Source: an uncultured Gammaproteobacteria bacterium
GTDB taxonomy: Bacteria > Patescibacteriota > Patescibacteriia > Magasanikbacterales > UBA10003
DNA: 64,000 bases
Assembly (NCBI GenBank): GCA_964365025.1
Contig: CAYIOJ010000001.1
Span: 42,475 to 106,474, forward strand
Direction: 5' to 3'
Each line of letters begins with the position of its first letter. Within the stretch, counting starts at the first letter, position 1. This document shows, piece by piece, positions 3,386 to 62,454 of the stretch. The notes under the pieces were generated by a model, which searched no databases, was not told where the DNA came from, and saw only the letters and a program-made list of their open reading frames with translations. A program made the translations under genes and the position numbers.

Positions 3386-4309
3386 CTATGAGATTAAAAA
3401 TTCAATGGCTTTATAAACTCGGTCAACGGGCGACGCCTCATTGTCCAACAAAACATACGGTGGTTTTTCCATCTCTGGTTTAATGTCGGCGAACTCGTCT
3501 GAATTGGTAAAACTGTACGGAAAGCTCAAAAGCCCGGCGTCGTTGCCAACCGGCATATCGCCAAAAGTCGCCACCTGATTTGATTCCAATCCTAAAAGTT
3601 TCAAAACAGACTTAATCGCTACCGTTTTACTGTCTTCTTCCAATTTTCTGGTGATATGAACATAAGTATCATCACCGGCGACCGCGCGATAGACCTCGCC
3701 AAGAGCTTGGTTAAGCTTGGCCACGACTGGCGCGTGTAAAGATTTATCTTTGGGTAAAACAAATGTGACTTTGGCCTGCTCGGTAAAAAATTCGCCATCA
3801 TATGGTCGGCAGACATCAATCATTTCCGCTGGAACATAACCATCCCAAGAATCTTGTAGAAATTTTTTAAAGGTCTCCAATCCTTTTTCCGCCAAGTCGG
3901 CCCGGCTGATGCTCAATTTTTTATAAACATCCTGGCCGACTTCGGCCGCTTGCTTAACTTGCGACAATTCAAAACCGTGATTGTAAATCTCCACCAGTTC
4001 ATTCTTTTTTACTTCATAAAGAGTGGTGCCGTTGCCCCCGGCGACAAAGCTGGGCACGGACACATTTTCCCGATTTAACAACTCTTGCAATGGCGGTACA
4101 AGAACTTTAACGGCCGTGGCGGCGCGGGCGGTAATAAAAGCCACGGATTTATCTTTGGCCAAAATCTTTTCCACCAAACCAAACACTTGCGGCTGTTTAT
4201 GCGTGGTGTCGCTTACTGTCCCATCATAATCCAAACCAAACAATTTAATCAACGGCTTGGCCTCTTCCAATTTGACCCGGGCCAATTCCTTGTGTGCTGT
4301 AATATCCAT
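3386..4309 (-). CDS. HAD-superfamily (subfamily IIB-like) hydrolase / sugar-phosphate phosphatase.
   Basis: N-terminal DxDGT motif (GLDYDGTVSD) and C-terminal FGDMPVGNDAGLL (motif IV GDxxND). Confidence 0.55.
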   Translation of the reverse strand: MDITAHKELARVKLEEAKPLIKLFGLDYDGTVSDTTHKQPQVFGLVEKILAKDKSVAFITARAATAVKVLVPPLQELLNRENVSVPSFVAGGNGTTLYEVKKNELVEIYNHGFELSQVKQAAEVGQDVYKKLSISRADLAEKGLETFKKFLQDSWDGYVPAEMIDVCRPYDGEFFTEQAKVTFVLPKDKSLHAPVVAKLNQALGEVYRAVAGDDTYVHITRKLEEDSKTVAIKSVLKLLGLESNQVATFGDMPVGNDAGLLSFPYSFTNSDEFADIKPEMEKPPYVLLDNEASPVDRVYKAIEFLIS

Positions 4310-4318
4310 ATATAAAAA

Positions 4319-5860
4319 TTAAACAATCCAATAAGTTAACACGGTTTTACGATTTTGATTTTTCATTATTTCCGGGTCTTCATAATAAGAGTCGCCCGGA
4401 ATGTGGGTAGTGGAAACTTCTTCAAAAATACATCCGTTTTTGGTGGTAAATGAATGATTAACACCGCGCTCCACCACTACGATATCGCCCGCTTTGCTTT
4501 CCAATAGTTTGCCATCCAAATTAAATGTGACGTCGCCGTACAAAACATTAAACGTCTCTTCTTTCACTTTGTGAAAATGCGCAGGATGTCGCTGGCCAGA
4601 TAAAACTATGATCAACTTTTTACAATATTCCCGATTGATACAGCTGGCGATGCTGGCTCCGATTTCATAAAATCTGTCCAAACCATAATGGTGCGAAAGC
4701 TCAAAATTCCATTTATTGGAAAAAGGGATATTGGCCTGGCGCAGGAGCTTATTGACTTTTTCAACCGCTTCGTAAACTTTTTCCCGAGCGTCCAGTTGGC
4801 TCACATCGGCCGCCAAAATCGGCTCGTTCTTTTTAAAATCCTTCAAGGCGTTCAAAATCATATACTTTGACATTCCATTGGCCAAAACTTGTCCTGCCTG
4901 ATTAGGAAACGCGAAAAAAGTATTTTTTACCTCCACCCGTTCCCCCGCTTTAATATCGCTGACGGCAAAAACCCCCCGTTGGAACTGACGGATATCAGCC
5001 AGCTCTTGCTGGGCAAATTCATGCCGTTGGCCAGCCACCCCGCAATAAATATAAGCCTCCCGCGCCGCTTCCAGCCACTTTCTAATTTGTTCGGGAGTGG
5101 CTGAATAAGCGTTGATTGGATACTTCTCACTTTTTATCGCCACATGCTTTTCAAAAAACCCCGCCCTCTTGGCCACAGCCAATTTAACGGCTTCAAAATT
5201 ATCCGGCGACTCGTGTGTGGAAAATCCAATCACCACCTCAGGGTATCGTTTTTTTAATAAACTTATCTGATTAAGTTGTAGCTGATCTGCCGGCGTGGGA
5301 TATTGCCCCACGCAATGCATGATGGCAAATTTTTTATTCCGGTGCTGAAAAAAACTAACCACCTTGTCAATGTCTTCAATCTTTGCGCCGCCGATAGAAG
5401 CTACAATGGGCTTATCGGTTTGAATAATTTGTTCCAGGAGCGGCCAATCAGTAAATGAACAACTGGCCACTTTAATGATGTCGTAACCGTGCTTGACAAT
5501 ATTTTCCACCGATTTCTCGTCAAACGGAGTACAAATGGTAATAAAACCGAGTTTCTGCGCTTCGTTTTTCAATTTCAACACATCTTCTTCGCTTAATTTT
5601 GTTTCAGAAAAACGTTTAACATATTTTAAATCCATTCGATTTTTGTAATCTGGGTGAATAAAGGTGTCCAAATCTCGATATTGGAATTTAAAAGCAAAAT
5701 TCCAGCCCAAAACGAAAAAATCTTTAACCACTTCGTGAATGTCTCTGATAATTTTTAGCCCGTGCTCCACATCGCCCATGTGATTATTGGCCATTTCAAA
5801 AATAAAAAGCGGGCTGGCGAATTTTTCTTGACATTGATTAAAAATTTGGTCGATTTTCAT
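4319..5860 (-). CDS. NeuB/PseI-family ulosonic (sialic-like) acid synthase fused to a C-terminal cupin domain.
   Basis: N-terminus IFEMANNHMGDVEHGLKII...FKFQ matches the NeuB TIM-barrel signature (AEIGxNHxG...KFQ). A SAF-like segment (VSDIKAGERVE) follows. The C-terminal 120 aa carry a two-His cupin motif (GQRHPAHFHKVKEETFNVLYGD). Confidence 0.6.
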   Translation of the reverse strand: MKIDQIFNQCQEKFASPLFIFEMANNHMGDVEHGLKIIRDIHEVVKDFFVLGWNFAFKFQYRDLDTFIHPDYKNRMDLKYVKRFSETKLSEEDVLKLKNEAQKLGFITICTPFDEKSVENIVKHGYDIIKVASCSFTDWPLLEQIIQTDKPIVASIGGAKIEDIDKVVSFFQHRNKKFAIMHCVGQYPTPADQLQLNQISLLKKRYPEVVIGFSTHESPDNFEAVKLAVAKRAGFFEKHVAIKSEKYPINAYSATPEQIRKWLEAAREAYIYCGVAGQRHEFAQQELADIRQFQRGVFAVSDIKAGERVEVKNTFFAFPNQAGQVLANGMSKYMILNALKDFKKNEPILAADVSQLDAREKVYEAVEKVNKLLRQANIPFSNKWNFELSHHYGLDRFYEIGASIASCINREYCKKLIIVLSGQRHPAHFHKVKEETFNVLYGDVTFNLDGKLLESKAGDIVVVERGVNHSFTTKNGCIFEEVSTTHIPGDSYYEDPEIMKNQNRKTVLTYWIV

Positions 5861-5870
5861 ATTATTGATT

Positions 5871-6812
5871 CTATTGGCTTAAAATGTATTTTGATTCCAT
5901 TTTAATTGTTTCAAAAGAACCAAATTTAGGATGATAACCCAAATTGTTAATTTTACCATACTTTGAATAATAAATGCTTTTTGCTCCTGTTGCGCTCTCA
6001 CTACTCACGGATGTGTCCATTTGAAACATTAAACCGTATTTTCGAACAAAATAATCAACCACTTCTCTTTTCTCCACTGGCCTGGCACTCATAACATCAA
6101 AAGCTCCATTAATATGGCTCGCGGCTAAACACTTCATAACCACAACAAAAAGATCGTCTGGATGAACATAATCACGAATAATATTTTGATTATCAGTGAC
6201 AAAAACTTTCTTTTTCAAGATGCAGGATAATAGTTCGGTAATAAAATACCCATCCGTCAAGTCAATAAACCGACTAAAATAAGAAAAGAGCCTAAGATCC
6301 ACAATGTTCAAATCAGCGAATGCTCTGTGTTTGGCCTCGGCATTGAGCCTGGCAATCGCATAATAGTCTTCTTTATTTATGTGATTAACACTTATACAAT
6401 TTGTCGTATTTTCTCTTGCTGGCGCCGAAAAAACTTTACCATAGACCGCTCCGCTGCTGAAACTTATATAAAGCGTCTTGGGATGGTTGCGACGCAAATA
6501 CGCTATAACCAGATTATCGTATTCTTCGGTTATTGTAAAATATGCCGCATAATCGCCTTTATGTTTGTTAATGGTGCCAATACCAACGCAGTTAATCACC
6601 ACATCGTAATCGCGGTTAGGAAAATCCGCAAATCCATTATAAATAAAACGGTCTTTTCCTTCACACTTGCCAATGGCAACTAAAAAATCGTTTACCTTAT
6701 CGGCCGAGCGCGCATACAAATGCAAACAAAATTCCTCGCTTTGTAAAAAGTTATAAATTAACCCTTTGGCGATATGAGATGTAGCGCCCAAAATGGCGAT
6801 ATTTTTTTTCAT
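5871..6812 (-). CDS. NAD(P)-dependent epimerase/dehydratase/reductase (extended SDR) family protein.
   Basis: N-terminal Rossmann motif IAILGATSHIAKGL; 313 aa. Confidence 0.45.
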   Translation of the reverse strand: MKKNIAILGATSHIAKGLIYNFLQSEEFCLHLYARSADKVNDFLVAIGKCEGKDRFIYNGFADFPNRDYDVVINCVGIGTINKHKGDYAAYFTITEEYDNLVIAYLRRNHPKTLYISFSSGAVYGKVFSAPARENTTNCISVNHINKEDYYAIARLNAEAKHRAFADLNIVDLRLFSYFSRFIDLTDGYFITELLSCILKKKVFVTDNQNIIRDYVHPDDLFVVVMKCLAASHINGAFDVMSARPVEKREVVDYFVRKYGLMFQMDTSVSSESATGAKSIYYSKYGKINNLGYHPKFGSFETIKMESKYILSQ

Positions 6813-21994: not shown

Positions 21995-22690
21995 CTAACT
22001 AAGGTTTTCAATCAGGGCGGGAACATTGATTTCCCGCCAGTCAAAAAAGACGCGACAGGCGCCTGCATCAACAAGAGCGCCGACAGTTGAACCGCGAATG
22101 ACGACTGGCATGCCGACGGCCTTGGAGCCGGCAGCAATAGCGGCCTGCACGCCGCGAGGTGAATCCTCAAAGACGAGCTGTTGGCGCGGATCGATTCCCA
22201 TGATCGAGGCCGTTTTCAGGAAAACATCAGGCGCCGGTTTGAGCCGCTTAACATGCTCACGAAGAATGATGCTGTCCCTTCCGAAATGGTCCAAAAGGCC
22301 AGACCCTTCCAGAAGCCGCCCCGCCTCCTGTTCTGGCGTGAGCGAGCCAATGGAGACGGAGATATTCAAGCCACGGACAGTTTTCAGGAAGCCGAAGAAT
22401 CCTGGCCTAGCAGAAATCGCCGTACCCGCAAGGTTCTCTCTGTAGTAATGCTCCGTGCGTTGACGAATATAATCTGACGATATTGACTTCTGCTGTTCAG
22501 CATTCAACAGATTCCAGATGTCCACGTGGACATCTGGCCCGCCAATGAAACGAGGAAGTCTAACCAAGGCCTCTTCATACGAAAGATCGATTCCGACCTC
22601 CTTTGCTGAAGCAAGGTGCGCGGCATGATGAGCCGCCTCAACATCAACGACAGTACCTTCTAGGTCAAAAGCGATGCCACGAATTAACAT
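21995..22690 (-). CDS. HAD-superfamily hydrolase (beta-phosphoglucomutase-like subfamily IA).
   Basis: IRGIAFDLEGTVVD (DxxGT motif I) and C-terminal FEDSPRGVQAAIAAG (motif III/IV). The region is GC-rich. Confidence 0.55.
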   Translation of the reverse strand: MLIRGIAFDLEGTVVDVEAAHHAAHLASAKEVGIDLSYEEALVRLPRFIGGPDVHVDIWNLLNAEQQKSISSDYIRQRTEHYYRENLAGTAISARPGFFGFLKTVRGLNISVSIGSLTPEQEAGRLLEGSGLLDHFGRDSIILREHVKRLKPAPDVFLKTASIMGIDPRQQLVFEDSPRGVQAAIAAGSKAVGMPVVIRGSTVGALVDAGACRVFFDWREINVPALIENLS

Positions 22691-22694
22691 GGTA

Positions 22695-23579
22695 CTACTC
22701 TCCTTTCTTGAGGGCGAGCCAAAGACTCGACCCTACGATGAGGGTTCCGCCGATCACTACTTGTGTCGTCAGTGGTTCGCGCAGGATCAAAAACGCGTAC
22801 ACGATCGCAAAGACCGGTTCACTCTTCCCAAGAATTGAAACGTGCAGTGAACGCGTCTTGCTGATTCCGTAGTTGTGGATTCCGGAAGCAACGACAGCAA
22901 AGGCCAGGCCGAAACCGATGAGTGGAATGACGTCAGAACTCTGCAACTCTCCCAGTTTCATCCAAGGCGTGACGGCAAGGAGGAGCACGGTGCTCATCGC
23001 ATACCGCCAGAAGTTTACCGCGCTGATCGTAATGCCCCTATCTGGATTGAGAATCGTGCGATAAAGCACGATGAGAAAAGCGTAAAAAAGTCCGGAAATC
23101 ACGCCGAGCGTAATTCCCACTAGATGGGATTTCTCACCACTCGTTCCGAGCTGATTGCTGTAGAGCGCCACAATGCCCGCAAGAGAAACAACGAGCGCCA
23201 CCCATTCATCTTTACGCGTACGCTCACGTAGTAGAAGCGGTGCGAGAATCAAAAGAAAAATCGAAACCGATTGATGTGCTACTGCCGCGTTCGCCACCGA
23301 TGTCATGGTGAACGCGAAAAAGTAACACAAGTCGTTCATGGTTGCTGTTACAGCAAGCGTGGCAAGAAGAATGTAATCGCGTTTCGTAAGGCGGGGCATT
23401 CCCTGGAGGCGGGCAATGATAAAAAAACTTATCATGCCGACCACCTGAAATATGCCCAGAAATGTGAGAGGAGAAATCTGCGGGCAGAGCCGCAAAAAAA
23501 GTGAGTATGACCCAAATATCGCCATAGCAACTAGTACGAGTAGGTCACCGGAAAATGTCCGCTTGGTTTCCATGGCCAA
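22695..23579 (-). CDS. DMT/EamA-family transporter.
   Basis: 294 aa, 10 predicted TM helices in a two-repeat arrangement; GC-rich codon usage. Confidence 0.45.
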   Translation of the reverse strand: MAMETKRTFSGDLLVLVAMAIFGSYSLFLRLCPQISPLTFLGIFQVVGMISFFIIARLQGMPRLTKRDYILLATLAVTATMNDLCYFFAFTMTSVANAAVAHQSVSIFLLILAPLLLRERTRKDEWVALVVSLAGIVALYSNQLGTSGEKSHLVGITLGVISGLFYAFLIVLYRTILNPDRGITISAVNFWRYAMSTVLLLAVTPWMKLGELQSSDVIPLIGFGLAFAVVASGIHNYGISKTRSLHVSILGKSEPVFAIVYAFLILREPLTTQVVIGGTLIVGSSLWLALKKGE

Positions 23580-23648
23580 CTTCCTTTCTAACTAAAATGT
23601 CAAAGAGCCATCGTTACTTTATAGCACAATCATATCTGAACGTCAAGT

Positions 23649-23678
23649 AAAAAAACCGCCTTGAGTTATTCAAAGCGG
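23649..23678 (-). terminator. Rho-independent terminator for the 23698..24459 gene (minus strand).
   Basis: On the minus-strand RNA, CCGCUUUG/CAAGGCGG forms an 8-bp stem (one G-U wobble) with a 7-nt loop, followed by a U7 run (A-run 23649-23655 on the plus strand). Confidence 0.5.
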
Positions 23679-23697
23679 CAGGGACTGTCTTTTGGTT

Positions 23698-24459
23698 TTA
23701 ATGGACCGAAACGCCAAAGTCTCCAAATCTGGCTCGGGCAACCAAGTAGAGAGACAGCGGCGTGACCGGACCATACTTGTCCCTCTCACAAAACATGACC
23801 TGGATAACATTGTTAGGAGTAAGTTGGAAGGGCAAAACCTCGCCTTCCCACTTGTCTTCGGCCTTCTCCCAACTGACCTTGAGTTCACCAATGGTTTCCT
23901 TAAGGGAAACCATGACGACCAGTGTATGGTGGTACTTGGCCGCTGGCGGGCTAACTTGGACCAACCCAAGCACCTTGAGCTGGGAGAATCCTACAGTTAC
24001 CCCAAACTCTTCCAGCATTTCTTGGACGATGTGGTGGAAAAAACGAGGATGAGGGGGCGTACAGCCCGGCACCCTAATTCCGCCTCCGACAGTGGCGGCA
24101 ATGGAGGCCACTGGCGCCTGCAAAGCCACAAAGCCATCAGAAGTGATTGGTATCATAGCCACGCCCAACCAACCCAGCACCATCCCTTGCTTGTAGTCAG
24201 ATGACACAACATCAAGAAGCAATCTTGCGCCATCATCAGAAAATTGGAAACCATCCAATCTCACGGTCGCGCCTGCAAAAGCCTTGGGATTCTTTGCGAG
24301 GACATCTTGCCAAGACGCCTCAATCCTGGCTTGCTGATTAGGGTCAATGAGAGTTGCTCCCCCTTTTTCAGTAAAGACGACATCATCTATCGAAAACGAT
24401 CTGTCAACAAGTATCTGCACCAGCGGATCACTGAACCGCAGCGTCGTTTCAGCATACAC
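23698..24459 (-). CDS. Hypothetical protein with a degenerate Nudix-like box (Nudix-fold candidate).
   Basis: 253 aa, GC-rich. The segment GGGIRVPGCTPPHPRFFHHIVQEMLEEFGV matches the second half of the Nudix box (REUxEExGU as QEMLEEFGV) but lacks the first conserved Glu. Confidence 0.25.
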   Translation of the reverse strand: MYAETTLRFSDPLVQILVDRSFSIDDVVFTEKGGATLIDPNQQARIEASWQDVLAKNPKAFAGATVRLDGFQFSDDGARLLLDVVSSDYKQGMVLGWLGVAMIPITSDGFVALQAPVASIAATVGGGIRVPGCTPPHPRFFHHIVQEMLEEFGVTVGFSQLKVLGLVQVSPPAAKYHHTLVVMVSLKETIGELKVSWEKAEDKWEGEVLPFQLTPNNVIQVMFCERDKYGPVTPLSLYLVARARFGDFGVSVH

Positions 24460-24469
24460 GGGACACCTC

Positions 24470-25093
24470 CTAATTGATCACTTGTGAAAACATGCCAAGC
24501 CCGAACTCTTTATAGCTAACGAAATCATGCCTGGCAATGTCTCTAGCCACGCCGGTCAGGAAAAAGCCGGGTTTGTCAATATTTTCGGCCCACTTTTGCA
24601 GATGTGCTTCCACTTGCTCGCATCTGGTCCAACCCTTATTCCCAGCCGTGACCACGAGATGCACTGGCGCTCTATAACGCCAGAGTTTGTCAGCGTCACG
24701 CACCAAGGCATCTTCCATAGCGTAAAAGCCCTGACGAGTGTCGTGCTGAGCGATAATGGTAAGAATGGCGCCGATACAGGCCGGGCTGTAATTGACCGAA
24801 CACAGAATCTTTAGCGCCAAATCCAGAGCATAGATTTGATGCTCCAAGCGCGCCGTATACTCCGCCTCTTTACTCGGCGGATTGTAGGCGATGAGGAGCT
24901 TGTCGGCCGGCATCATGCTCCAACCAATATCGTGGAACATAATGGCCGGAACCACAATTCGCGCCTTGGCCGAAGGGATTCGCGCCAAAAGCCGCAGGGC
25001 ATAACCAGTAGCAATGGCCGCGTGTCCCGTGTCGTTGCGCTTGTCTTGATACGGCAGAGCCAATTTCCAGATTTGTGCGAATTTTGTTTTCAC
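24470..25093 (-). CDS. HD-domain metal-dependent phosphohydrolase.
   Basis: GHAAIATGYALRL ... IMFHDIGW ... RDADKL gives the H...HD...D pattern; 207 aa. Confidence 0.55.
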   Translation of the reverse strand: MKTKFAQIWKLALPYQDKRNDTGHAAIATGYALRLLARIPSAKARIVVPAIMFHDIGWSMMPADKLLIAYNPPSKEAEYTARLEHQIYALDLALKILCSVNYSPACIGAILTIIAQHDTRQGFYAMEDALVRDADKLWRYRAPVHLVVTAGNKGWTRCEQVEAHLQKWAENIDKPGFFLTGVARDIARHDFVSYKEFGLGMFSQVIN

Positions 25094-52140: not shown

Positions 52141-52169
52141 ATTATATCACCATTCCTGCCCATTGACAA
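52141..52169 (-). promoter_or_regulatory. Sigma70-type promoter for the 49912..52128 gene: -35 TTGTCA (52164-52169), 17-nt spacer, perfect -10 TATAAT (52141-52146), near-leaderless.
   Basis: Reverse complement reads ttgtca-N17-tataat-aatggaactttt-ATG. Confidence 0.5.
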
Positions 52170-52191
52170 ATTCGCTTATTTATGCTATTAT
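52163..52191 (+). promoter_or_regulatory. Sigma70-type promoter for the Cys-repeat lipoprotein gene: -35 TTGACA (52163-52168), 17-nt spacer, -10 TATTAT (52186-52191); about 85-nt leader with AAGGAG RBS.
   Basis: ttgacaaattcgcttatttatgctattat. The RBS aaaaggagaacggctATG lies at 52263-52280. Confidence 0.5.
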
Positions 52192-52280
52192 TTTTAGAAA
52201 GGAGGGACAACCAAGGAGGTAGTTCCTTTTCAATTCAATAATGGCAAAAAACACTGAAAACAGATAAAAGGAGAACGGCT

Positions 52281-55200
52281 ATGAAGTGCTTGCTGATACT
52301 GATGGCGCTGGTATTCGTGGTGATGACGGGGTGCTTTGACTATACCCCGCCGCCGAACAATGTGAGCGATACAACTGGCGATGTGTCGGCTAATGCTGAT
52401 TCGGATTCGCTGGATGTCAAAGGCGGCGGCTCCGGCGACGAGATGCCATTCAATCCGCCTCTGCCTGACGACACCAAGCCACTTTTGGTTGATACCGATG
52501 TGGCGTTGATTGATGGAGACGGCGACACTGTCGTGTCCGATAAAAGAGATGTCAAAAACTCGCTGGAAACAGACAGGACTGGTGAAACAACTAATCCGGT
52601 GGACACAACTGACAGCGCGGACGCGAAGGATGCTCTTGACATAGAGACAGCGGTTGTGCCACCTTGCGTGACCAATCCCTTGCTCTGCGCGGACGCACCA
52701 TCGACTCCGGACACGAAAATTGACAATGATGTCCCCACTACTACCGCCGAACCCCAAGCCGACGCCCCTGACACGCAAGACGCGCCAGATGCCGAGGCCG
52801 ACTCTGCTCTGCTCTGCCTTCCGAACTGCGCTGGCAAGCAGTGTGGTGACAACGGTTGCGGCGAGTCGTGCGGCGAGTGCCTGAATGGCTACGCGTGCAA
52901 CGCGGACTTTGTCTGCGAGTGCGTGGTGGGCTGTCAGATTCCGGCCGAGCCGACTGTTGATGCGGCAAATGCTGATGCCGACGCGACCACGACAGTCGAC
53001 GCCCATGCAGATATACTGCCCGGCGCGGATGCGACAGTGGAAACACCGTCAGGCGAAATAAAGTCGCCAATTGACGTGCCTGTAAACGCGGAACCTTCCG
53101 TAGACGCTAATGTCGCGGAGATTGCTGCGGCAGATGGCACGACTATCGCCGATGACACTAGTCCTGACGCCGGGCCAGACATCTTTGTCCAGCCCTGTGT
53201 GGCCAAGCCGAACATCTGCGACGACGGCAATGTCTGCACGGACGACTGGTGCGACATGGCCGATGGCTGTCTCCATATTAACAATACCGCGCCTTGCGAC
53301 GACGGCGACCAGTGCACCGAGAACGACGCTTGTCAAAACAGCATTTGCGCGCCGGGCCAGCCGTTGGTCTGCAATGACAGCAACGCTTGCACCGATGACT
53401 ACTGTCAGAATGGCGTTGGCTGTGTCTACGAATGGGTGTGTGAGTGCGCGTCTGATGCCGAGTGCAATGATTTGAACCCGTGTACCGACGACATCTGCGC
53501 AACGGGTTTCTGCGAGTATGCACTCAACTCTATCGTCTGCGACGACGGTAATGCCTGCACCAGCGTGGACATCTGCGTGTCCGGAGAATGCCTGGGGGTC
53601 GCATCGCTCAACTGCAATGACAACAACGAGTGCACTCTGGACGCCTGCGATCCGCAGAGCGGCTGCCACAACGAGCCGCAAACAGGAATGGCCTGCAATG
53701 ACGGCAATGCCTGCACCACCACAGACATCTGTGAAAAGGATGTTTGCGCTGGCGAGGCCACTGTCTGCGACGACCAAAATCCCTGCACAGACGACTCGTG
53801 CGATGAGCAGAGCGGTTGCGTGTTCACTCTCAACAACAGCAATCCTTGCGAAGACGGGAGCTTGTGCACAACAGACGATTTCTGCGACGCGGGCAAGTGC
53901 CAAGGCGGCCAAACGCTGAAGTGCAATGATGGCAATATCTGCACGGATGATGTCTGTCAACCGACACAAGGATGTGTCTATCTTGCCAATCAGGTGGGGT
54001 GCGACGACGGCAACGGCTGCACTATCGGTGATATCTGCGCGGATTCGGCCTGCGTCAGCGGGACGAATATCTGCGAATGCGCCACAGATGAAGATTGTGC
54101 CGTGGCTGAGGACAACAACCTCTGCAATGGCACGCTTGTCTGCGACACTAGCAAGATGCCATTCCAATGCGTCGTGAACCCTGACACCATCATCACCTGC
54201 CCCACTGCCTCTGACACCGTCTGTTTCAAAAACATTTGCCAGCCAACGAGCAGCGGCAAGTGCGAGATGGAAGCGGTGAATGAGGGAGGAGGGTGCGATG
54301 ATGGCAATGCCTGCGCCACAGGCGATGCCTGCTCCAAGGGTGTCTGCGCGGGAGCGAGCATCAAGTGCGATGACAGTAATGTCTGCACTGACGACTCCTG
54401 CGACCCGACCAGCGGATGTGTGTACACTCCCAACAACGCCGAATGCGCGGATGATGGCAATGAATGCACGACTGACATTTGTCAAAGCGGAAAATGCGCC
54501 CACCCGCCAACAACGGACGGCGCGGATTGCGATGACGGAACAGTGTGTACAATAGTTGACATCTGCCAAAGCGGCCAGTGCATAGGCATGGCTCCTCTGG
54601 ACTGCGATGACAATGACCAGTGCACGCTGGATATCTGTCACAAAGCGCTGGGATGCCAGCACAGCAAAATGGCCCTGAACGGCCAGATCTGCGACAACGG
54701 CGATGCCTGCACCACCGGCGACACTTGCCAGGACGGCGCGTGCCAAGCCGGAACGCAAACCTGCGAGTGCTACATCACGACTGACTGCGTCGGAATGGAA
54801 GACGGCAATTTCTGCAACGGAACGCTCGTCTGCAACACGGTTGTCATTCCGCACCAATGCGTCGTGAACCCCAATACCATCATCACCTGCCCAACCGCTT
54901 CAGACACCACCTGCTCTAAAAACACCTGCCAGCTAGCAAGCGGCAAGTGTGAGATGAAGGCGATGAATGAGGGGGTGGCCTGCGATGACGGGAATCCGTG
55001 TACCGAAACCGACATTTGCCAAAACGGCCAATGCAATGGCACGCCCAAACCCACCGGCACGGTCATCTTCCAAGATGACTTCAACGACGGTAACATTGAC
55101 GGATGGACAGTGAAAACATGGAACTCCTGTCCTAACTGCTCAATGTGTCCCTGCGACCTTCCCACAATCGTGGTTACCGACGAGACGCCGTTTTGGGTGA

Positions 55201-55535
55201 AAATGTCGCCTTTGGCCGGTAGCGGGCATGTGTTGTTCACAACACCCGCCACTTTACTGCCAAAAGGAGGTACAATCAACTTCCTCTTTGCCGGCGTCAA
55301 CTGTGCCGGCACTGGTAGCAACTGCGAAGTGCGCACTAGCAACGGAACCTTTCTTGGAAATGTCACCAGTTACAATTACTGCGCCACCCAACCGCCAAGC
55401 TGCCCAACAAAATTCAATATCATTGAGGATGAAAAAAACAGCCAAGTGGTGTTGGATTGTACCGGAGTATCCAACGGATCTTACAATGCTTGCGGCGCCA
55501 CTTACCTTGATGACTTTTCTATCACCTGCCCATAA
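52281..55535 (+). CDS. Secreted lipoprotein: acidic low-complexity N-terminal region, about 24 tandem cysteine-rich CxDxNxCTxDxC repeats (Dictyostelium CTDC-like), C-terminal beta-sandwich/lectin-like domain.
   Basis: MKCLLILMALVFVVMTGC (lipobox). Repeats such as CDDGNVCTDDWCD, CNDSNACTDDYCQ and CDDQNPCTDDSCD run from about aa 300-905, with two ~90-aa super-repeat copies (CVVNPDTIITCPTASDT...). C-terminus FQDDFNDGNIDGWT. Strongly GC-rich relative to its neighbours. Confidence 0.6.
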   Translation: MKCLLILMALVFVVMTGCFDYTPPPNNVSDTTGDVSANADSDSLDVKGGGSGDEMPFNPPLPDDTKPLLVDTDVALIDGDGDTVVSDKRDVKNSLETDRTGETTNPVDTTDSADAKDALDIETAVVPPCVTNPLLCADAPSTPDTKIDNDVPTTTAEPQADAPDTQDAPDAEADSALLCLPNCAGKQCGDNGCGESCGECLNGYACNADFVCECVVGCQIPAEPTVDAANADADATTTVDAHADILPGADATVETPSGEIKSPIDVPVNAEPSVDANVAEIAAADGTTIADDTSPDAGPDIFVQPCVAKPNICDDGNVCTDDWCDMADGCLHINNTAPCDDGDQCTENDACQNSICAPGQPLVCNDSNACTDDYCQNGVGCVYEWVCECASDAECNDLNPCTDDICATGFCEYALNSIVCDDGNACTSVDICVSGECLGVASLNCNDNNECTLDACDPQSGCHNEPQTGMACNDGNACTTTDICEKDVCAGEATVCDDQNPCTDDSCDEQSGCVFTLNNSNPCEDGSLCTTDDFCDAGKCQGGQTLKCNDGNICTDDVCQPTQGCVYLANQVGCDDGNGCTIGDICADSACVSGTNICECATDEDCAVAEDNNLCNGTLVCDTSKMPFQCVVNPDTIITCPTASDTVCFKNICQPTSSGKCEMEAVNEGGGCDDGNACATGDACSKGVCAGASIKCDDSNVCTDDSCDPTSGCVYTPNNAECADDGNECTTDICQSGKCAHPPTTDGADCDDGTVCTIVDICQSGQCIGMAPLDCDDNDQCTLDICHKALGCQHSKMALNGQICDNGDACTTGDTCQDGACQAGTQTCECYITTDCVGMEDGNFCNGTLVCNTVVIPHQCVVNPNTIITCPTASDTTCSKNTCQLASGKCEMKAMNEGVACDDGNPCTETDICQNGQCNGTPKPTGTVIFQDDFNDGNIDGWTVKTWNSCPNCSMCPCDLPTIVVTDETPFWVKMSPLAGSGHVLFTTPATLLPKGGTINFLFAGVNCAGTGSNCEVRTSNGTFLGNVTSYNYCATQPPSCPTKFNIIEDEKNSQVVLDCTGVSNGSYNACGATYLDDFSITCP
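53180..55020 (+). repeat. Tandem array of ~72-nt (24-aa) cysteine-rich coding repeats within the lipoprotein gene, including a diverged ~250-nt super-repeat (about 54060-54310 vs 54760-55000).
   Basis: Recurrent tgcgacgacggcaa(t/c)gcctgcacc... units; gtcgtgaaccctgacaccatcatcacctgcccc at 54170 matches gtcgtgaaccccaataccatcatcacctgccca at 54860. Confidence 0.55.
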
Positions 55536-55550
55536 TAACACAACCCAACC

Positions 55551-55590
55551 AAAAAGCACGCCTCTCAGCGTGCTTCTTTTTTTATTTTTT
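55551..55590. terminator. Bidirectional intrinsic terminator between the convergent genes 52281..55535(+) and 55582..56262(-).
   Basis: 8-bp stem aagcacgc/gcgtgctt (55554-61 / 55568-75), loop ctctca, A-run upstream and T-run (tttttttatttttt) downstream. Confidence 0.6.
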
Positions 55591-56278: not shown

Positions 56279-58591
56279 TTAATTCTTATCTAATTTATAA
56301 TCTTTAATAAATTTATCCACTTCCGGTTTAATCTGCGGAGCCAAAGAAATAATTTGATTGGCTGTTTCCCAGGCCTGTTTTTTATCGCCATTCAAAGCAT
56401 AAGCAGTGGCTAATTTAATATACCAATTGATATTTTCTGGTTCGGAGTTGACCAACTTTTCGTATTCTTCAATCAATTTTGGATAATTCTTGGCCAAACC
56501 ATACAAATCCAAAATATATTGTTTCTGATTCTGGTTTAAATCATAACCTAATTCCTGGAATTTTTCAATCTCGACCAGCCCCTCTTGCAATTGACCGGCC
56601 GCCACATAAGTCAACCCCAAAAACCAATGACTCAAAGCAACTTCCGGCGCCAACTCCACTGCCTGTTTTTGTACTTTCACCGCTTGATCAAAATTTTTCT
56701 CTAAAAGATAAAGACGGCCCAATAAAAATAAAATCTCTTGCTTTTGAGGGGAAATAATCTGCGCCGACAACAAATTCTTTTCTGCCATTTTATAATATTT
56801 GCTGTCAATCTGCTCTCCTAAAACCATATATACTTGACCGGCCCAAGCGTGGAAAGACAGGTTTTGAGGATTTTTAACAGCTGATTTTTCTAAAACTTCG
56901 GCAATCATCAGAGCAATTTTTTCAATTTCTTTGTTGTTAGTCACGGCATTGGCCTTATTAAATTGAGTAAATTGTTCGGCTAAAAAAATAGCGTCTTCCG
57001 CGACAAAAGGATTGGCAATGGTTAAAACTTTTGTGGCATGCGTAGACCAATCCGCTAGATTGCCGCTTAATTCAGCTTGCCGCATGTGATAAGAAGACCG
57101 CAATGGCAGATAAAAAGCGCGATAAAATAAAAAAATAAAAAACAACAAAAGCCCAAATTTAAATATAATAGCGCGCGTGGATGAGCCAACGGGCGCGTCC
57201 ACTTGACTGGTAATTTTTGAGCGGCGCGCGGCGGAAATATACGCCAACAACATAATCCACAAAATTAAACTGTTTGAGGTTTCAAATAAAAACAAATCAA
57301 ATGCCAAATAAGCGGCGAGAGTCGAAATTAAAGCAATTTTCGCGCTGTTTGGTAATACAGATGAAATATTTTCCCGCCATAATAAATAATAAAAAGCAAA
57401 AAATAAAATAGCGAGGTAGCTGATGAACCCGACTGCGCCGGCGGAATCGACTATTTCCAAAAGCCAATTGTGCGGCTTGTCCCAAACCGTCTCGGTAAAA
57501 CCATATTGTAATAATTTTGGATTAAAATATTTATCAAAAATTAAATTAAAATTACCCATTCCCCAACCCAACAACGGCCTCTCTTTAAACCCAGCCCAAG
57601 CCATCTGCCAAACCAGCAACCGCGTTTCGCTGGTACCAGAGATATAACCAACTGGATTAAATAAATTGGCTAAGTGAGGAGCGCGAAATTGAATAAATCT
57701 TTGTTGGGAAATAAAAAACAGAACAAAAAATAAAATTATAAATGACAGAAATGAAGTGGCAATGATTATTTTTTGTTTTTTGGATTGCAAAATAAAAAAA
57801 GCGACTATGAGGCCGACAAAAACGCCAAAAATTAATCCAACTAAAGCGCCTCGATTACCACTTTGCCAAATAACAAATAAAAACAGCGCGGCCGAGGCCA
57901 AATAAAGCCAACGCCATTTATTTCTATAAATTAAAAACAAATAAACAGCCAAGCCCATTGCTAAAAGTAAATAGCCGGCTAAAAAAGCGCGATTGCCAAT
58001 AATACCGCCGCCGGCAATGCTCTGCCAGTTCACCGGGAGAATTTCTGGCCAAAGAGCGGACAAGGAGACGAGGGCGGCTGTCAAGATGGCGAAGAAAAAA
58101 AAAGTATGAGATTGTTTCGTCGCTCCGCCGGTGGCGGAGCTCCTCGCAATGACATTATGAGAATAAAAAAAACTAACCAGTAAAAAATAAAAAGCGCCAA
58201 AATGCAGCCAGGTAAAAACCCCATTGGCGCGCGCTTGATTACCCCAAAAGCTATTGGACGGATTAACGCCGATAAAGGAAGTGATGATGAGAGCGGCAAG
58301 AAAAATAAGAATTGACCAATCAAGTTTATTGAGCCGACATGTTTTAGATCCCTCGACTTCGCTTCGCTTCCTGCCTGCCGGCAGGCAGGGCGCTCGGGAT
58401 GACAAATAATTATACAGCCACAAAACCACCAAAAACTCCACAACAATCTGAAAAATTATCGTTTTGCCAAAATGCCAAGGAAAAAAGGTAAACGGCGTAA
58501 ATAAGAGCGGCAAAAATACAATAAAGTACAATCCGTATTTTAAAAATGTGTCAAATTTTGTAGAAAACATAATCAATAATAACCTTATCAA
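56279..58591 (-). CDS. O-antigen ligase / Wzy_C-family membrane protein fused to C-terminal TPR repeats (paralog of 49912..52128).
   Basis: 770 aa with the same architecture: about 12 TM helices, a periplasmic loop, and a C-terminal TPR region (AEVALSHWFLGLTYVAAGQLQEGL...). Confidence 0.5.
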   Translation of the reverse strand: MIRLLLIMFSTKFDTFLKYGLYFIVFLPLLFTPFTFFPWHFGKTIIFQIVVEFLVVLWLYNYLSSRAPCLPAGRKRSEVEGSKTCRLNKLDWSILIFLAALIITSFIGVNPSNSFWGNQARANGVFTWLHFGAFYFLLVSFFYSHNVIARSSATGGATKQSHTFFFFAILTAALVSLSALWPEILPVNWQSIAGGGIIGNRAFLAGYLLLAMGLAVYLFLIYRNKWRWLYLASAALFLFVIWQSGNRGALVGLIFGVFVGLIVAFFILQSKKQKIIIATSFLSFIILFFVLFFISQQRFIQFRAPHLANLFNPVGYISGTSETRLLVWQMAWAGFKERPLLGWGMGNFNLIFDKYFNPKLLQYGFTETVWDKPHNWLLEIVDSAGAVGFISYLAILFFAFYYLLWRENISSVLPNSAKIALISTLAAYLAFDLFLFETSNSLILWIMLLAYISAARRSKITSQVDAPVGSSTRAIIFKFGLLLFFIFLFYRAFYLPLRSSYHMRQAELSGNLADWSTHATKVLTIANPFVAEDAIFLAEQFTQFNKANAVTNNKEIEKIALMIAEVLEKSAVKNPQNLSFHAWAGQVYMVLGEQIDSKYYKMAEKNLLSAQIISPQKQEILFLLGRLYLLEKNFDQAVKVQKQAVELAPEVALSHWFLGLTYVAAGQLQEGLVEIEKFQELGYDLNQNQKQYILDLYGLAKNYPKLIEEYEKLVNSEPENINWYIKLATAYALNGDKKQAWETANQIISLAPQIKPEVDKFIKDYKLDKN
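58370..58389. repeat. Perfect 20-bp GC-rich palindrome cctgcctgccggcaggcagg embedded in a ~50-bp GC-rich patch inside the AT-rich coding sequence.
   Basis: Seen directly at 58370-58389. Flanked by the direct repeat cgcttcgcttc. It encodes ...LPAGRKRSEVEG... in the N-terminal loop of 56279..58591. Confidence 0.6.
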
Positions 58592-58677: not shown

Positions 58678-61600
58678 TTAATAGGTGAAGGTCTTCCAGA
58701 CGAGCGGCAGGTCTTGGCTCATAGAAGTTATGCCACCGGCTGCAGCAATGCCATCAGTCCAACCTATGTCAGCTGAACCCATACGGATAGACAAGGTCTT
58801 GGTTGAAGCTGAATCGGTAGTGTCCAGAGTGACATAGAAGGTCTTGGAAGCGCCGGAAGCTATTTCAACATCAGTCATACCGCCGTCATTAAAGGCAGTA
58901 TTACCAAAAGTTTGCTTCTGACCCTCAGTTGCCGTATTCACGAAGTTGGAAGTTCCCAAAGCAGTGGTGCTTAAACTATCCTTGTATAGATTAATAGCGC
59001 GAGGGGTAATGAGACCGGCCACCTGTGAAATTGTAGTGGACATATCAAAGTTCACATAATTCACAGTGGCAGTGTAGGCGCCGCTATTAGCCAGGTTGGT
59101 AACAACAAACTTAGCCACGGTCTGCGCTGAAGACGGAGATGATGCGCCAGACGGAGTATCAGTTGCCCAAGCAGTTGTCAGTTTGGCGCGATACAAGGTG
59201 GTCGTAGCCGCAAAGGCATTACCACCGGTAGTGGCGCCGGCAGCGGCATAAATATTAGCCGTTCCGCTTTGTGAGACTGTAGCGGTGATAGATTGTCCGG
59301 AAGATGCGCCAGTAGCGGTTATCGGGCTGTTAATGGTAGCTGGAGTGCCATAGTAATCGGCCAATATACCCACTTCAACAGTTTGACCGGTTGTAGACAA
59401 ACCAAGTGATTCATAAGTGGTCGCATCAGCTTTTACCACTAAAACTTTAGACACGCCTTTGGCAATATTCAAGCTTAAACCGGAGAAAATTGCGTGCTCA
59501 TAGGTAGTAGTGGCAGTAGTTGAATCGGAGTTGAAAGAAGCCACGGCTGAACCAATAATAGTATTGGTTTCATTATCATAGAGTCGGATATTATACCAAG
59601 TACCGGTAGTGGCGGCGGTTACCAATTTAGAACTAACCACTAACTGGGAGATATTGATGGCTTCAGTTGAGCTAGCCGCAATCTTGAATCTGGCAATGGT
59701 CTGATCCACCGAACCAAGCAAATAATTGTTAGCTACCGGAGTGTCAGAATCTGTTGTTATCATAAAAGCGCCAGCAGAAGAAACATAATTCTGTTGCAGA
59801 GCAACATCAGCTGCGCTGGCCAAGCTGGCAGAGGTGCCAGTGTCATAACCAGTGGCAGTGATTGAATCAATTTCAATTAACACATCGGCCGTGGTTAAAG
59901 CAGTTTTCAGATCAGCAAAGACATCAACCACATACTGCGCGCCGGCATTAATTTTAACAGCCGGAGAAACATTGAAGGAATAAGTGTTAAGAGTGGTACA
60001 AGTGCCGGAAGGATTGGCATAAGTTGTGCCCAATTGCACTCCAGCGCTATTCTTCAAAGTTAAATTCTGCAAGTGGTCGCCAATACAATTGGTGGTGTCA
60101 TTGTCAGCTAAAACAATCTGTGACACATTGACCGCTTCGCCAGAACCGGCGGTAATCACTAATGAAGCAACCTTCATTTGTGACGCGTTAACCGGGCCGG
60201 TTGGCGTGCCAGATGATCCATTACCAAATGAAGCATTCTTGCCGGCAGTCACCGTGCCGGTCTTTACAGCCAAGGCATTGGCATTTTGAGCCACCGTGCT
60301 GATAGAAGACAAGGAAACCGTGCCTTGAGCGTTAGAAGAACCAAGCACCAAACCGGTAGTATAGGTTTCTACGCCAGTGATTTCGCTATCTGTGGTATCA
60401 GCCACTATCTTAACTGCGGCAGTTTTGCCAGCTTTAATAATAAAGCTGCTGCCAAAAGTGCCCCATCCGGTATCAGCTACGCCAGCGGTCTCTAACAAAG
60501 CAATGGTAGTGCCGACCTGGGAGCCATCAACCAGCAAACGAACATTGACCAATTCATCACCGGCGGAAGTACAAGTACCGGTACAAGTTGAAGACACGCT
60601 CAAACTGGAAACCTTAACATCTTCGCCATTGGCTTTCCAGTTGAATTTAGCCAAAGTAACACTGGTGGCTCCATCCGGGATATTGCCGGTTGGGGAATCA
60701 GTGGCTAAGGTTTGAGTCAAAGTGCCGGTATTGATGGCATAATTGACAGCCGTACCAGAGGTATTTGGCTCAATAACCGAGAAACTTTCAGAACTGGCTG
60801 ACGAAAGTGTCTTGATAAACACATTGTAGCCCTTATCGTATTGCAAGATATCAGAATTGTTCTGAATAGTGGCGCGGAAATTGCGATTGGTGCCGCCAAC
60901 CACATCAGTCTTCAAGCTAAGAATCTTAGTCTGACCTTTAGTCACCAAATAAGGACTGGCTGACAAATCAAAAGTAATGGTTTTATCAGCAGCCATTTCA
61001 GCAACTGCGGAACCGATATTGCTAACGCCGTCAGACAAGATAAAATTCTTCAAATCGCCAACATTGAGAGAACCAACTAAAGTAAAGACAACCTTTCTCA
61101 CCTCCACATCCTGATTGGTATTGGCCGCTTGCACTCTCCAAATCTCAAAGCCATTTGTTCCAGGATCAACTGTGCCTGCGGCTGAAGGGCTTGAGCTGGT
61201 CCAAACCAATTTAGCCAGATCAGTTATTTCAGCGGTGGTGAAAGTACTGCCAACCAAGGGGAAAGTACCGGAAACTGTTCCGCTCGCCAATACTACATCA
61301 CTGGAAGCATTGACCGAGAAAGTAAGAGTTTTGCCAGAATTTACATCCACTTCTTTAAGGTCAAGTTTGACGGTTATTACCTTGGAAGTACCTTTGCTAA
61401 CAGTGAAAAGACCGGCGCTGTTGGAAAAAGTTATCACATTAGAAGCAATTGCCGGATTGCTGATCAATCTGGTTTCACCGTCAAAAAGATACATGTTGCT
61501 GATATCAGTGTCAGCCGAAACACCACCTCTTTTAACTTTAATATCAGTTACTTTCGCATCACCATCAGCAGCCGCGGTGAATGACAACTTTAACACCGGG

Positions 61601-62454
61601 ATCAAGGCCTGCGCGCCGCCGCCAGTAGAATCATCAGACACAATCGTAGTTGCTACCGGCTGATCGCTGGCCAAACTCACAGTCAAACCAGAACCGGAAG
61701 TTGTGGTGGTTGTGCCGCCAGTGCCTGTTCCTACTGCCGCTCCTGTGCCAGCCACTGTTTTCAAAGTAGCGTCAGCAGCCAGGTCAGCGCCGGCAGTGTA
61801 TCCATCCAAATTGGCAGCTAACACCGCGTATTTGGTCTGGAAACCATTGGCAGCCAACACATCAGCAGACACTTTTTGTTTGCTGTTGGCGGCATTGACA
61901 TAGAAATAATCAGAGCCGACCTTCACCAACGCGCCAACCGGATAGGAGGCGGTGTTGACAGAAGAGCCAACTTTATAGACATAAGGGAAAATGCTTGGGT
62001 CAACATCATGAACTTTTTTGGCCCAATCATTGCCAAACAATGATTTGGCAATCGCTTCTGTTTCAATCCAGCGGATGCTTCCACCGGGTTCAACAGCGTA
62101 TACTTTTGGATCGGTCTGAATCTTCACCAATTGGGTGCCGGCTTTGTAAGCCACAGTGCCGCCAATGGTGATATTGCCCATTTGGGCGTCTGGAATTTTC
62201 TTCACCACGGTCCAATCTTTGTACCAGGAAAAGAAAACTTTATCGGTTGGGAAAGTATAGCGTTTGCCATCAGCGGAATAGTAAAACACATTCTTGGTGG
62301 AAGTGCCCTGAATCACATCGCCGGCAACCAAAGCCACATCGGCCTTGACAACCAACGGCGCGACCAAAGCGGCAAAACCAATTGACCAAAGAATTGTGGT
62401 GAACACTACACTCACAGTCAACGCTTTCTTTCCGATTTTTAATACATCGGTCAT
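58678..62454 (-). CDS. Giant secreted Thr/Ser/Gly/Ala/Val-rich surface protein (1258 aa), adhesin / S-layer-like.
   Basis: N-terminal signal/anchor LTVSVVFTTILWSIGFAALVAPLVVKA. Beta-rich low-complexity composition (TGTGAAVGTGTGGTTTTTSGSGLTVS...), no catalytic motifs. Higher GC than the locus average. Confidence 0.5.
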   Translation of the reverse strand: MTDVLKIGKKALTVSVVFTTILWSIGFAALVAPLVVKADVALVAGDVIQGTSTKNVFYYSADGKRYTFPTDKVFFSWYKDWTVVKKIPDAQMGNITIGGTVAYKAGTQLVKIQTDPKVYAVEPGGSIRWIETEAIAKSLFGNDWAKKVHDVDPSIFPYVYKVGSSVNTASYPVGALVKVGSDYFYVNAANSKQKVSADVLAANGFQTKYAVLAANLDGYTAGADLAADATLKTVAGTGAAVGTGTGGTTTTTSGSGLTVSLASDQPVATTIVSDDSTGGGAQALIPVLKLSFTAAADGDAKVTDIKVKRGGVSADTDISNMYLFDGETRLISNPAIASNVITFSNSAGLFTVSKGTSKVITVKLDLKEVDVNSGKTLTFSVNASSDVVLASGTVSGTFPLVGSTFTTAEITDLAKLVWTSSSPSAAGTVDPGTNGFEIWRVQAANTNQDVEVRKVVFTLVGSLNVGDLKNFILSDGVSNIGSAVAEMAADKTITFDLSASPYLVTKGQTKILSLKTDVVGGTNRNFRATIQNNSDILQYDKGYNVFIKTLSSASSESFSVIEPNTSGTAVNYAINTGTLTQTLATDSPTGNIPDGATSVTLAKFNWKANGEDVKVSSLSVSSTCTGTCTSAGDELVNVRLLVDGSQVGTTIALLETAGVADTGWGTFGSSFIIKAGKTAAVKIVADTTDSEITGVETYTTGLVLGSSNAQGTVSLSSISTVAQNANALAVKTGTVTAGKNASFGNGSSGTPTGPVNASQMKVASLVITAGSGEAVNVSQIVLADNDTTNCIGDHLQNLTLKNSAGVQLGTTYANPSGTCTTLNTYSFNVSPAVKINAGAQYVVDVFADLKTALTTADVLIEIDSITATGYDTGTSASLASAADVALQQNYVSSAGAFMITTDSDTPVANNYLLGSVDQTIARFKIAASSTEAINISQLVVSSKLVTAATTGTWYNIRLYDNETNTIIGSAVASFNSDSTTATTTYEHAIFSGLSLNIAKGVSKVLVVKADATTYESLGLSTTGQTVEVGILADYYGTPATINSPITATGASSGQSITATVSQSGTANIYAAAGATTGGNAFAATTTLYRAKLTTAWATDTPSGASSPSSAQTVAKFVVTNLANSGAYTATVNYVNFDMSTTISQVAGLITPRAINLYKDSLSTTALGTSNFVNTATEGQKQTFGNTAFNDGGMTDVEIASGASKTFYVTLDTTDSASTKTLSIRMGSADIGWTDGIAAAGGITSMSQDLPLVWKTFTY

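Follow-up and report, generated by a model that had tools for sequence, protein, structure and literature searches.

The subject of this analysis is a GC-rich gene for a cysteine-repeat lipoprotein in a 64,000-nucleotide stretch of contig CAYIOJ010000001.1 (hereafter the window), which comes from an ultra-small groundwater bacterium of the Patescibacteria, also known as the candidate phyla radiation (CPR). The best explanation of the data overall, and one that we consider rather probable, is that the gene descends from an old transfer of Myxococcota type, and that its product is a lipid-anchored stalk presenting a binding head. The open reading frame (ORF) listing of the window placed the gene at 52281..55535 on the + strand with 1084 amino acids, exactly where a preceding sequence-only reading had put it. 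The product is recorded at NCBI as a 'hypothetical protein' of a Patescibacteria group metagenome-assembled genome (MAG), and a NCBIfam search with the full protein returned no match. The gene and its regions, all on the + strand, are as follows.

52281..55535, +: coding sequence (CDS) of the CTDC-repeat lipoprotein, 1084 residues (NCBI MEK9183292.1)
52281..52334, +: signal peptide and lipobox (MKCLLILMALVFVVMTG followed by C; residues 1-18), with G17 and C18 invariant in 4 orthologues
52335..52805, +: acidic linker 1, D/T/A/P-rich and indel-rich (residues 19-175)
52806..52955, +: conserved 10-Cys mini-module (residues 176-225; CLPNCAGKQCGDNGCGESCGEC...FVCECVVGCQIPAEPT), with Cys 179-218
52956..53195, +: linker 2 (residues 226-305)
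53196..55034, +: Cys-repeat array (residues 306-918) with 95 Cys, made of 18 four-Cys units and two CEC modules
54072..54263, +: CEC module 1 (residues 598-661, 10 Cys)
54438..54521, +: extra 28-residue repeat unit (residues 720-747) of the window copy only, a gap in 3/3 orthologues
54762..54950, +: CEC module 2 (residues 828-890, 10 Cys), a paralogue of module 1 (repeats D8 and D10 at 687-690 nt spacing)
55035..55532, +: clade-specific C-terminal head (residues 919-1084, 166 residues, 11 Cys), a predicted beta-jelly-roll

The GC content of the window is about 0.33-0.45 along most of its length and 0.51-0.58 across 52-55 kb; in 60-nt steps, it was found to rise from 0.33-0.38 to at least 0.52 exactly at the ATG, and to drop again past the stop codon. 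The CTDC gene has a GC content of 0.563 and a third-position GC content (GC3) of 0.658, the highest among the 50 genes of the window, the other 49 having a mean of 0.401 (standard deviation 0.066, maximum 0.596), which places the gene at z=3.9. The GC-rich island in AT-rich flanks that the sequence-only reading had described is, therefore, real. Compared with the other genes, the codon shift touches every amino-acid class, as exemplified by the fractions of TTA (0.31 to 0.02), CTG (0.09 to 0.37), TTC (0.12 to 0.65) and AAG (0.24 to 0.50), and the non-repeat parts of the gene, i.e., the linkers and the head, are likewise GC-rich (GC3 0.57-0.61). The Cys codons do prefer TGC, but at 80% they are not 'almost all' TGC as had been claimed. 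Similarly, spurious ORFs of at least 80 residues are indeed enriched within the gene (4.4/kb against 0.84/kb elsewhere, i.e., 5.3-fold denser), but they are not confined to it, and are modestly enriched in other GC-richer stretches of the window as well. An antisense ORF of 602 residues (53049..54857) was rejected as a gene, its register being the same as that of the sense codons; since TTA, CTA and TCA codons are nearly absent from the sense frame, such a long antisense ORF is a mechanical by-product.

A sharp compositional step is also what would be seen if the GC-rich block were an assembly chimera, in which a Myxococcota fragment had been joined into a Patescibacteria contig, as the sequence-only reading had cautioned; nothing besides the step itself speaks for this. 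A protein identical to that of the window was found on two contigs from Hainich well H51, namely ERZ1292641 (27 kb, 0.2-um fraction) and ERZ1292643 (8.2 kb, 0.1-um fraction), both with the same AT-rich genes on either side of the CTDC gene. Between the window and the corresponding locus L002, 1 nt in 8196 is different; L001 shows 0 differences within the gene and 4 single-nucleotide polymorphisms elsewhere, its divergent contig end excluded. Three diverged full-length orthologues (P0002-4; 59, 56 and 55% identity) were further retrieved from Logan contigs of another project. Their downstream neighbours are those of the window, namely a gene for a 226-residue TPR-like protein and a Wzy_C-TPR gene, joined in one relative by the gene for a 1258-residue protein; their flanking genes are 51-83% identical to those of the window, and a 152-nt upstream region is alignable in 4/4 loci. 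The orthologues have a GC3 of 0.68-0.70, against 0.35-0.43 in their flanks, so that the AT-rich copies in relatives that the sequence-only reading had named as contrary to a transfer were not seen. Since three independent assemblies, from different filter fractions and replicates, have identical sequence across both junctions, and since the syntenic orthologues share the same gene-flank arrangement, chimerism is excluded. The leader is, moreover, contiguous with the CDS, and the step sits exactly on the start and stop codons. Overall, the probability left for a chimera is negligible.

The hallmarks of horizontal gene transfer that were found in the gene are an atypical composition and codon usage, and a patchy distribution, i.e., four CPR orthologues plus one fragment against an abundance of Myxococcota type. 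Its relative synonymous codon usage correlates at r=0.82 with the CTDC genes of Myxococcota and at r=0.33 with the genes of its own genome, and is best fitted by a 57:43 mixture of the two (r=0.91). The Myxococcota CTDC genes have a GC3 of 0.72-0.98, matching their own GC-rich flanks, whereas those of DPANN archaea and of one low-GC genome have a GC3 of 0.16-0.38; because the latter are AT-rich, the GC-rich codons are not demanded by the composition or the fold of the protein. Amino-acid composition was accordingly set aside as the cause, as it accounts for the GC content of the first and second codon positions and not for GC3, and translational selection confined to NNC codons was ruled out, the codon shift being global.

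The foreign origin proposed by the sequence-only reading was thus upheld, but not its recency. The synonymous divergence (dS) of the gene is ~1.0-1.4 in every orthologue pair, and that of the flanks is 0.95-1.8 between the window and L003, and ~2 between the window and L004; the gene distances are star-like, and the flanks place L003 nearest. The acquisition is therefore older than the split of at least four lineages, with flanks that are syntenic in three relatives, 51-83% identical, and at a dS of ~1 or more. At the borders, a search for hallmarks of mobile elements found no tRNA in 64 kb, no integrase and no bracketing repeats, and the neighbours are envelope genes; this lack is consistent with an old event. 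The most economical account, we infer, would be that an ancestor of the CPR clade long ago received the entire CDS, in a single transfer, from a GC-rich donor resembling the Myxococcota. The acquired CDS would have come under the control of an AT-rich promoter and leader, its GC3 ameliorating slowly, and in parallel in the descendants, from ~0.83 at the root to the present 0.66-0.70, with the equilibrium lying lower still.

Amelioration was modelled by a two-state (S/W) non-stationary likelihood on 433 third positions of conserved two- and four-fold codons in 4 taxa. On a star tree, stationarity was inferior to a root GC3 of 0.83 with an equilibrium of 0.52 (twice the log-likelihood difference, 2dlnL, of 7.9), and the three quartet topologies gave the same estimates with a 2dlnL of 8.0-10.7 and a root GC3 of 0.83-0.84. 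The 95% profile of the equilibrium spans ~0.35-0.65, with the own-genome value of 0.39 inside it and 0.70 excluded (2dlnL 7.4). The flanking genes, serving as control, were stationary at 0.37. Parsimony polarisation of the synonymous changes was set aside, being biased at such divergence.

Several observations weigh against the account of an old, ameliorating transfer. The amelioration test comprises 4 taxa and 433 sites, and its power is lost with three taxa; it is therefore supportive and not decisive. The fitted equilibrium of ~0.5 lies above the background of 0.39, such that selection or biased gene conversion may keep the GC3 up, and a GC step exactly on the CDS is equally expected under codon-level selection. 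No donor closer than ~35-46% identity was found, so that the direction and the source of the transfer rest on distribution and codon usage. A rival explanation is that the high GC3 is maintained, either by codon or mRNA selection in a highly expressed gene or by GC-biased gene conversion, regardless of whether the gene was transferred. In its favor, GC3 stays at 0.66-0.70 in all four orthologues despite a dS of ~1 or more, the promoter and leader outside the GC step are AT-rich and conserved, the promoter and the Shine-Dalgarno sequence are strong, the repeat array bears signs of intragenic conversion and of unit gain (a CEC2-type stretch in CEC module 1 and the extra 28-residue unit), and, in the distant pair, the dS of the gene (1.1) is below the flank value (~2). 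Nonetheless, the stationary model was rejected, along with an equilibrium of 0.70. The G-ending codons of Lys, Glu, Leu and Val are also shifted, mirroring the Myxococcota genes and reaching beyond NNC, the linkers and head share the GC-richness, and the DPANN genes encode CTDC repeats with AT-rich codons. Maintenance of the high GC3 is thus judged unlikely, and the old transfer with subsequent amelioration is preferred.

The product itself is modular. Its N-terminus has the positive n-region, the hydrophobic h-region and the lipobox cysteine of a lipoprotein (MK-CLLILMALVFVVM-TG-C18); position -3 of the lipobox is M, I, L or M across the four orthologues, and the invariance of Gly17-Cys18 supports the lipoprotein-type N-terminus that had been read from the window alone. 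The mature protein, of ~110 kDa, carries a net charge of ~-146 (12.5% D, 11.1% C, just 3 Arg), and a maximum of 59 disulfides is predicted to be possible among its 118 Cys. The single acidic linker of ~270 residues in the sequence-only reading is indeed acidic, but turned out to be two linkers around the 10-Cys mini-module. Linker 1 has, among the orthologues, a mean amino acid identity of 44.5%, a ratio of nonsynonymous to synonymous divergence (dN/dS) of 0.36, and gaps in 71 of 208 alignment columns; together, the linkers amount to ~240 residues of acidic, indel-rich sequence at a dN/dS of 0.36-0.40. The mini-module shows a mean identity of 75%, a dN/dS of 0.20 and zero gaps, and with its motifs, CTDC loci of Myxococcota were retrieved whose alignment begins at about residue 175 of the query. 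It is to be noted that linker 1 of the window copy also contains a two-Cys insertion (~residues 113-137, roughly 52617-52691) that at least two of the three orthologues lack.

The array is the most strongly constrained part of the protein (dN/dS 0.18). Pfam assigned it to PF00526 (Dicty_CTDC) in 8 stretches, with E=2.4e-30 and 104.4 bits against a cut-off of 27, which bears out the family that the sequence-only reading had named. The 18 tandem four-Cys units are of two alternating types, nine with C5C4C5C-like spacing and nine with C5C5C4C spacing; the C-x-D-x-N-x-C-T pattern is present, and the strict motif CxDxNxCTxDxC occurs 7 times. Thus, tandem four-Cys repeats are present as described, but neither in the number nor with the uniformity of the ~24 identical 24-residue units that had been counted, and two CEC modules are interspersed. 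The suspected super-repeat was found in these modules, as the CEC regions (residues 596-671 and 826-900) are 64.5% identical in amino acids, and 74.6% identical in DNA over 201 nt, 690 nt apart. CEC module 1 of the window copy contains the CEC2-type 'CPTASDT' where module 1 of the orthologues has CNADQDT, CNASQDT or CNPAKDT, and the 64.5% identity between its own two modules compares with 56-59% in the orthologues; the stretch and the higher identity suggest intragenic gene conversion in the window lineage, as judged from the alignments. The copy-specific insertions, i.e., the 28-residue unit and the two-Cys segment, imply that the gene still gains and loses units. An AlphaFold2 (AF2) model of residues 520-720 consists of beta-hairpin units and has a predicted local distance difference test score (pLDDT) of 95.2. 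In sequence searches of the PDB, the full protein had no match and the stalk profile matched only fibrillin at E=0.9, and no experimental structure for the PF00526 family was found. The CTDC/CEC composite unit, modelled at a pLDDT of 95 and without a solved structural relative, makes the PF00526 fold a structural target.

Among the folded regions of the protein, the head has diverged most, with identities of 40-66%, a mean identity of 42% and a dN/dS of 0.31. An AF2 model from the four sequences is all-beta with 13 strands, and its predicted structure is that of a beta-jelly-roll sandwich. The LamG/concanavalin-like head of the sequence-only reading is therefore supported in its fold but not in sequence membership, because Pfam returned no head match for the isolated head or the full protein, even at E<=10. 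On the first head strand, 'FxDDFxDGxxxGW', there are sub-threshold PDB sequence matches to CBM22 and calnexin. An exhaustive HMMER search of 1.84 billion representatives revealed no full-length relative of the head beyond the orthologues, a word-indexed homology search with the isolated head gave no matches, orthologues included, and a scan of metagenome contigs with the head alignment yielded one weak partial match only. The head resembles the MAM domains, the cleaved-adhesin domains of gingipains, and the beta-sandwich modules CBM4/22/61 in that its N-terminal 'FxDDFxDGxxxGW' and C-terminal 'YLDDFSI' strands are typical of ConA-like jelly rolls; however, these domains are only 9-17% identical to it and give no Pfam or PDB sequence match, and in the head, which has 11 Cys, no ligand-binding residues are assignable.

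The wider family was surveyed by a whole-protein search, which returned 2846 matches; apart from the orthologues, the matching stretch is confined to the repeat region, ~45-65% of the query, with 31-44% identity, and the proteins, 1100-1900 residues long, come mostly from MAGs of Myxococcales or Deltaproteobacteria. A GTDB scan retrieved 78 loci, almost all in Myxococcota or 'Deltaproteobacteria', with many paralogues per genome, the exceptions including a few loci of DPANN archaea and a single locus of Parcubacteria. Among the homologues, the CEC module is multi-copy in 17-18 retrieved proteins (E 1e-20 to 1e-28), a composite of ~200 residues, B-A-B-CEC-B-A, occurs 94 times, and lipobox N-termini are present in two of the closest non-orthologous relatives. 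The C-terminal heads of homologues include Lectin_C (P0068, P0078), Laminin_G_3 (P0047), InhA-like MAM (P0056) and D8C (P0081). Since the homologues share the modules, the lipoboxes and the C-terminal heads, the succession of lipid anchor, linker, CTDC stalk and binding head is a general design of the family. The PF00526 proteins of Myxococcota thus resemble the window protein in the two alternating unit types, the CEC module and the ~200-residue composite, in the lipobox (some), the mini-module before the array (several loci) and the non-repeat C-terminal head. At an identity of 31-46%, they differ in being longer and natively GC-rich, with many paralogues per genome, and in that their heads are recognisable Pfam domains while that of the window is a sequence orphan; all of them are annotated as hypothetical. 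The Dictyostelium CTDC proteins have the same Pfam repeat in secreted, Cys-rich tandem arrays, but are eukaryotic, have no lipid anchor, and carry other flanking domains. In comparisons of the predicted structure, the best solved-structure match to the stalk model was the Gal/GalNAc lectin heavy chain of Entamoeba histolytica, likewise a Cys-rich, elongated part of a surface adhesin. A literature search on CTDC proteins in bacteria or on adhesins of CPR found nothing specific.

A few loci outside the Myxococcota deserve mention in their own right. L076 (28-2202, + strand, Candidatus Parcubacteria MAG JAGLTA010000031.1) encodes a different Cys-rich protein of 724 residues, in which the mini-module (CAGKECGDDGCGSSCGVC) is followed by MopE-like 'DxDGDG...CDDxD' repeats and a 'YIDDFQILEC' end; it was rejected as an orthologue, the mini-module alone being in common. 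Its matched segment has a GC content of 0.545 against 0.377 in the flanks, and the gene could represent another Cys-rich import into CPR, independent of the CTDC gene. In MAGs of Pacearchaeota and Woesearchaeota (L067, L075, L079), CTDC-repeat genes have host-like AT-rich codons (GC3 0.16-0.24), and ultra-small archaea therefore possess fully ameliorated or native CTDC copies.

Among the homologues, the heads joined to the CTDC stalk are of lectin, LamG or MAM type. For this reason, a stalk with a binding head at its end, as the sequence-only reading had envisaged, is the best functional model, the binding itself being putative. In this model, Cys18 would be lipidated and would anchor the protein to the cytoplasmic membrane, the ~240 residues of acidic linker would serve as a flexible tether across the wall and the surface layer, and the constrained, disulfide-stapled array would provide a rigid spacer resistant to proteases. 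The head, fast-diverging and specific to the clade, would then be the specificity element that binds the ligand, most likely a glycan or a protein, either on another cell or on the own envelope. Here too, there is reason for caution. The head model is moderately confident, with a pLDDT of 70 in one model and 29-41 in the other four, and head binding, lipidation, expression and an episymbiont lifestyle are all putative, being read from sequence, as are the carbohydrate binding and the host attachment proposed by the sequence-only reading. It is also possible, if somewhat doubtful, that the protein is instead a structural part of the cell's own envelope, i.e., a disulfide-cross-linked, Ca-binding coat or matrix, with the head on the own surface glycan. 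The founding members of PF00526 are extracellular matrix and spore-coat proteins of Dictyostelium, acting in cellulose-containing matrices, which would suit such a role, as would the extremely acidic, D/N-rich composition. The gene, moreover, lies within a ~60-kb envelope-glycan locus (GT4, radical-SAM/B12, UbiA, epimerase), and its flanks of conserved synteny comprise two Wzy_C-TPR genes and the 1258-residue, S-layer-like protein. The divergence of the head, however, would better fit a variable external ligand, and the gene is a separate transcription unit, oriented opposite to the locus. The stalk presenting a binding head is therefore retained as the preferred model. An extension of it, which we regard as a long shot, is that an episymbiotic Patescibacterium recognises its host by this head, and that the stalk gene was captured from the very Myxococcota-type lineage on which the bacterium lived or fed.

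The expression signals and the neighbouring genes are listed below.

52163..52191, +: sigma-70-type promoter, TTGACA-17-TATTAT with TG extension (11/12 consensus positions)
52192..52280, +: AT-rich 5' leader with a hairpin and the Shine-Dalgarno sequence AAGGAG (52268-52273), conserved in 4 loci
55554..55585, +: terminator-like hairpin (55554-55575) and T-run, 19 nt past the stop codon
49912-52128 and 56279-58591, -: Wzy_C (O-antigen-ligase-like) and TPR paralogues bracketing the CTDC gene, an arrangement conserved in relatives
58678-62454, -: T/S/A/G/V-rich protein of 1258 residues with an N-terminal hydrophobic segment, no significant Pfam match

Both promoter hexamers are kept in 3/4 orthologous loci, and L004 retains the -35 while its -10 region differs. 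RNAalifold predicted a 13-pair hairpin in the leader, with compensatory changes at 2 pairs, and Rfam recognized no family in the leader or the terminator, apart from one sub-threshold chance match to Trp_leader. A divergent promoter, also with 11/12 consensus positions, points to the upstream Wzy_C gene, and from this arrangement of signals the CTDC gene is predicted to be monocistronic.

Within a series of envelope genes on the - strand, to which the gene of the 226-residue TPR-like membrane protein also belongs, the CTDC gene alone is on the + strand. Since PglL-type protein O-oligosaccharyltransferases also carry Wzy_C, it might be imagined, purely as speculation by analogy, that the bracketing Wzy_C-TPR proteins glycosylate the T/A/P/D-rich linkers. 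For the 1258-residue protein, a candidate for an S-layer or some other large surface protein, L004 has an orthologue of 65.5% identity, likewise syntenic with the CTDC gene. In L004, an extra T-rich gene of 725 residues with a faint fn3 match (4190-6367, - strand) lies between the TPR-like and Wzy_C genes, indicating that the surface-protein neighbourhood varies between relatives. Over the whole window (1-64000), nearly all genes are on the - strand and form one very long (~60-kb) envelope/glycan biosynthesis locus, with many GT4 genes, several B12-radical-SAM genes, and SPASM, UbiA, epimerase, TylF-methyltransferase and TPP-enzyme genes. A second GC-rich patch in this locus (21995-25093, - strand) contains a HAD hydrolase, an EamA transporter and two genes without a Pfam match; its GC3 is 0.54-0.60 against ~0.40 around it, and it is probably another foreign insert.

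Taken together, the CTDC gene adds a member to the bacterial CTDC family, known but without a characterised function, and what distinguishes this gene is the Patescibacteria as its bearer, the orphan head, and the persistence of the donor codon signature. It provides a clean case of a foreign gene long retained with donor codons in a streamlined genome, useful for amelioration rates in CPR, and it cautions against taking every sharp GC island of a MAG for a chimera or a recent event. To our knowledge, the recognition of and attachment to partner cells by Patescibacteria are largely unexplained, with few concrete surface candidates. The CTDC gene is one such candidate, conserved and apparently strongly promoted, with a fast-evolving orphan head and well-defined domain boundaries in its product. 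If the improbable capture from a host lineage were true, the donor signature of the gene would identify the physical host of the Patescibacterium, and the fading GC3 could clock the onset of their association.

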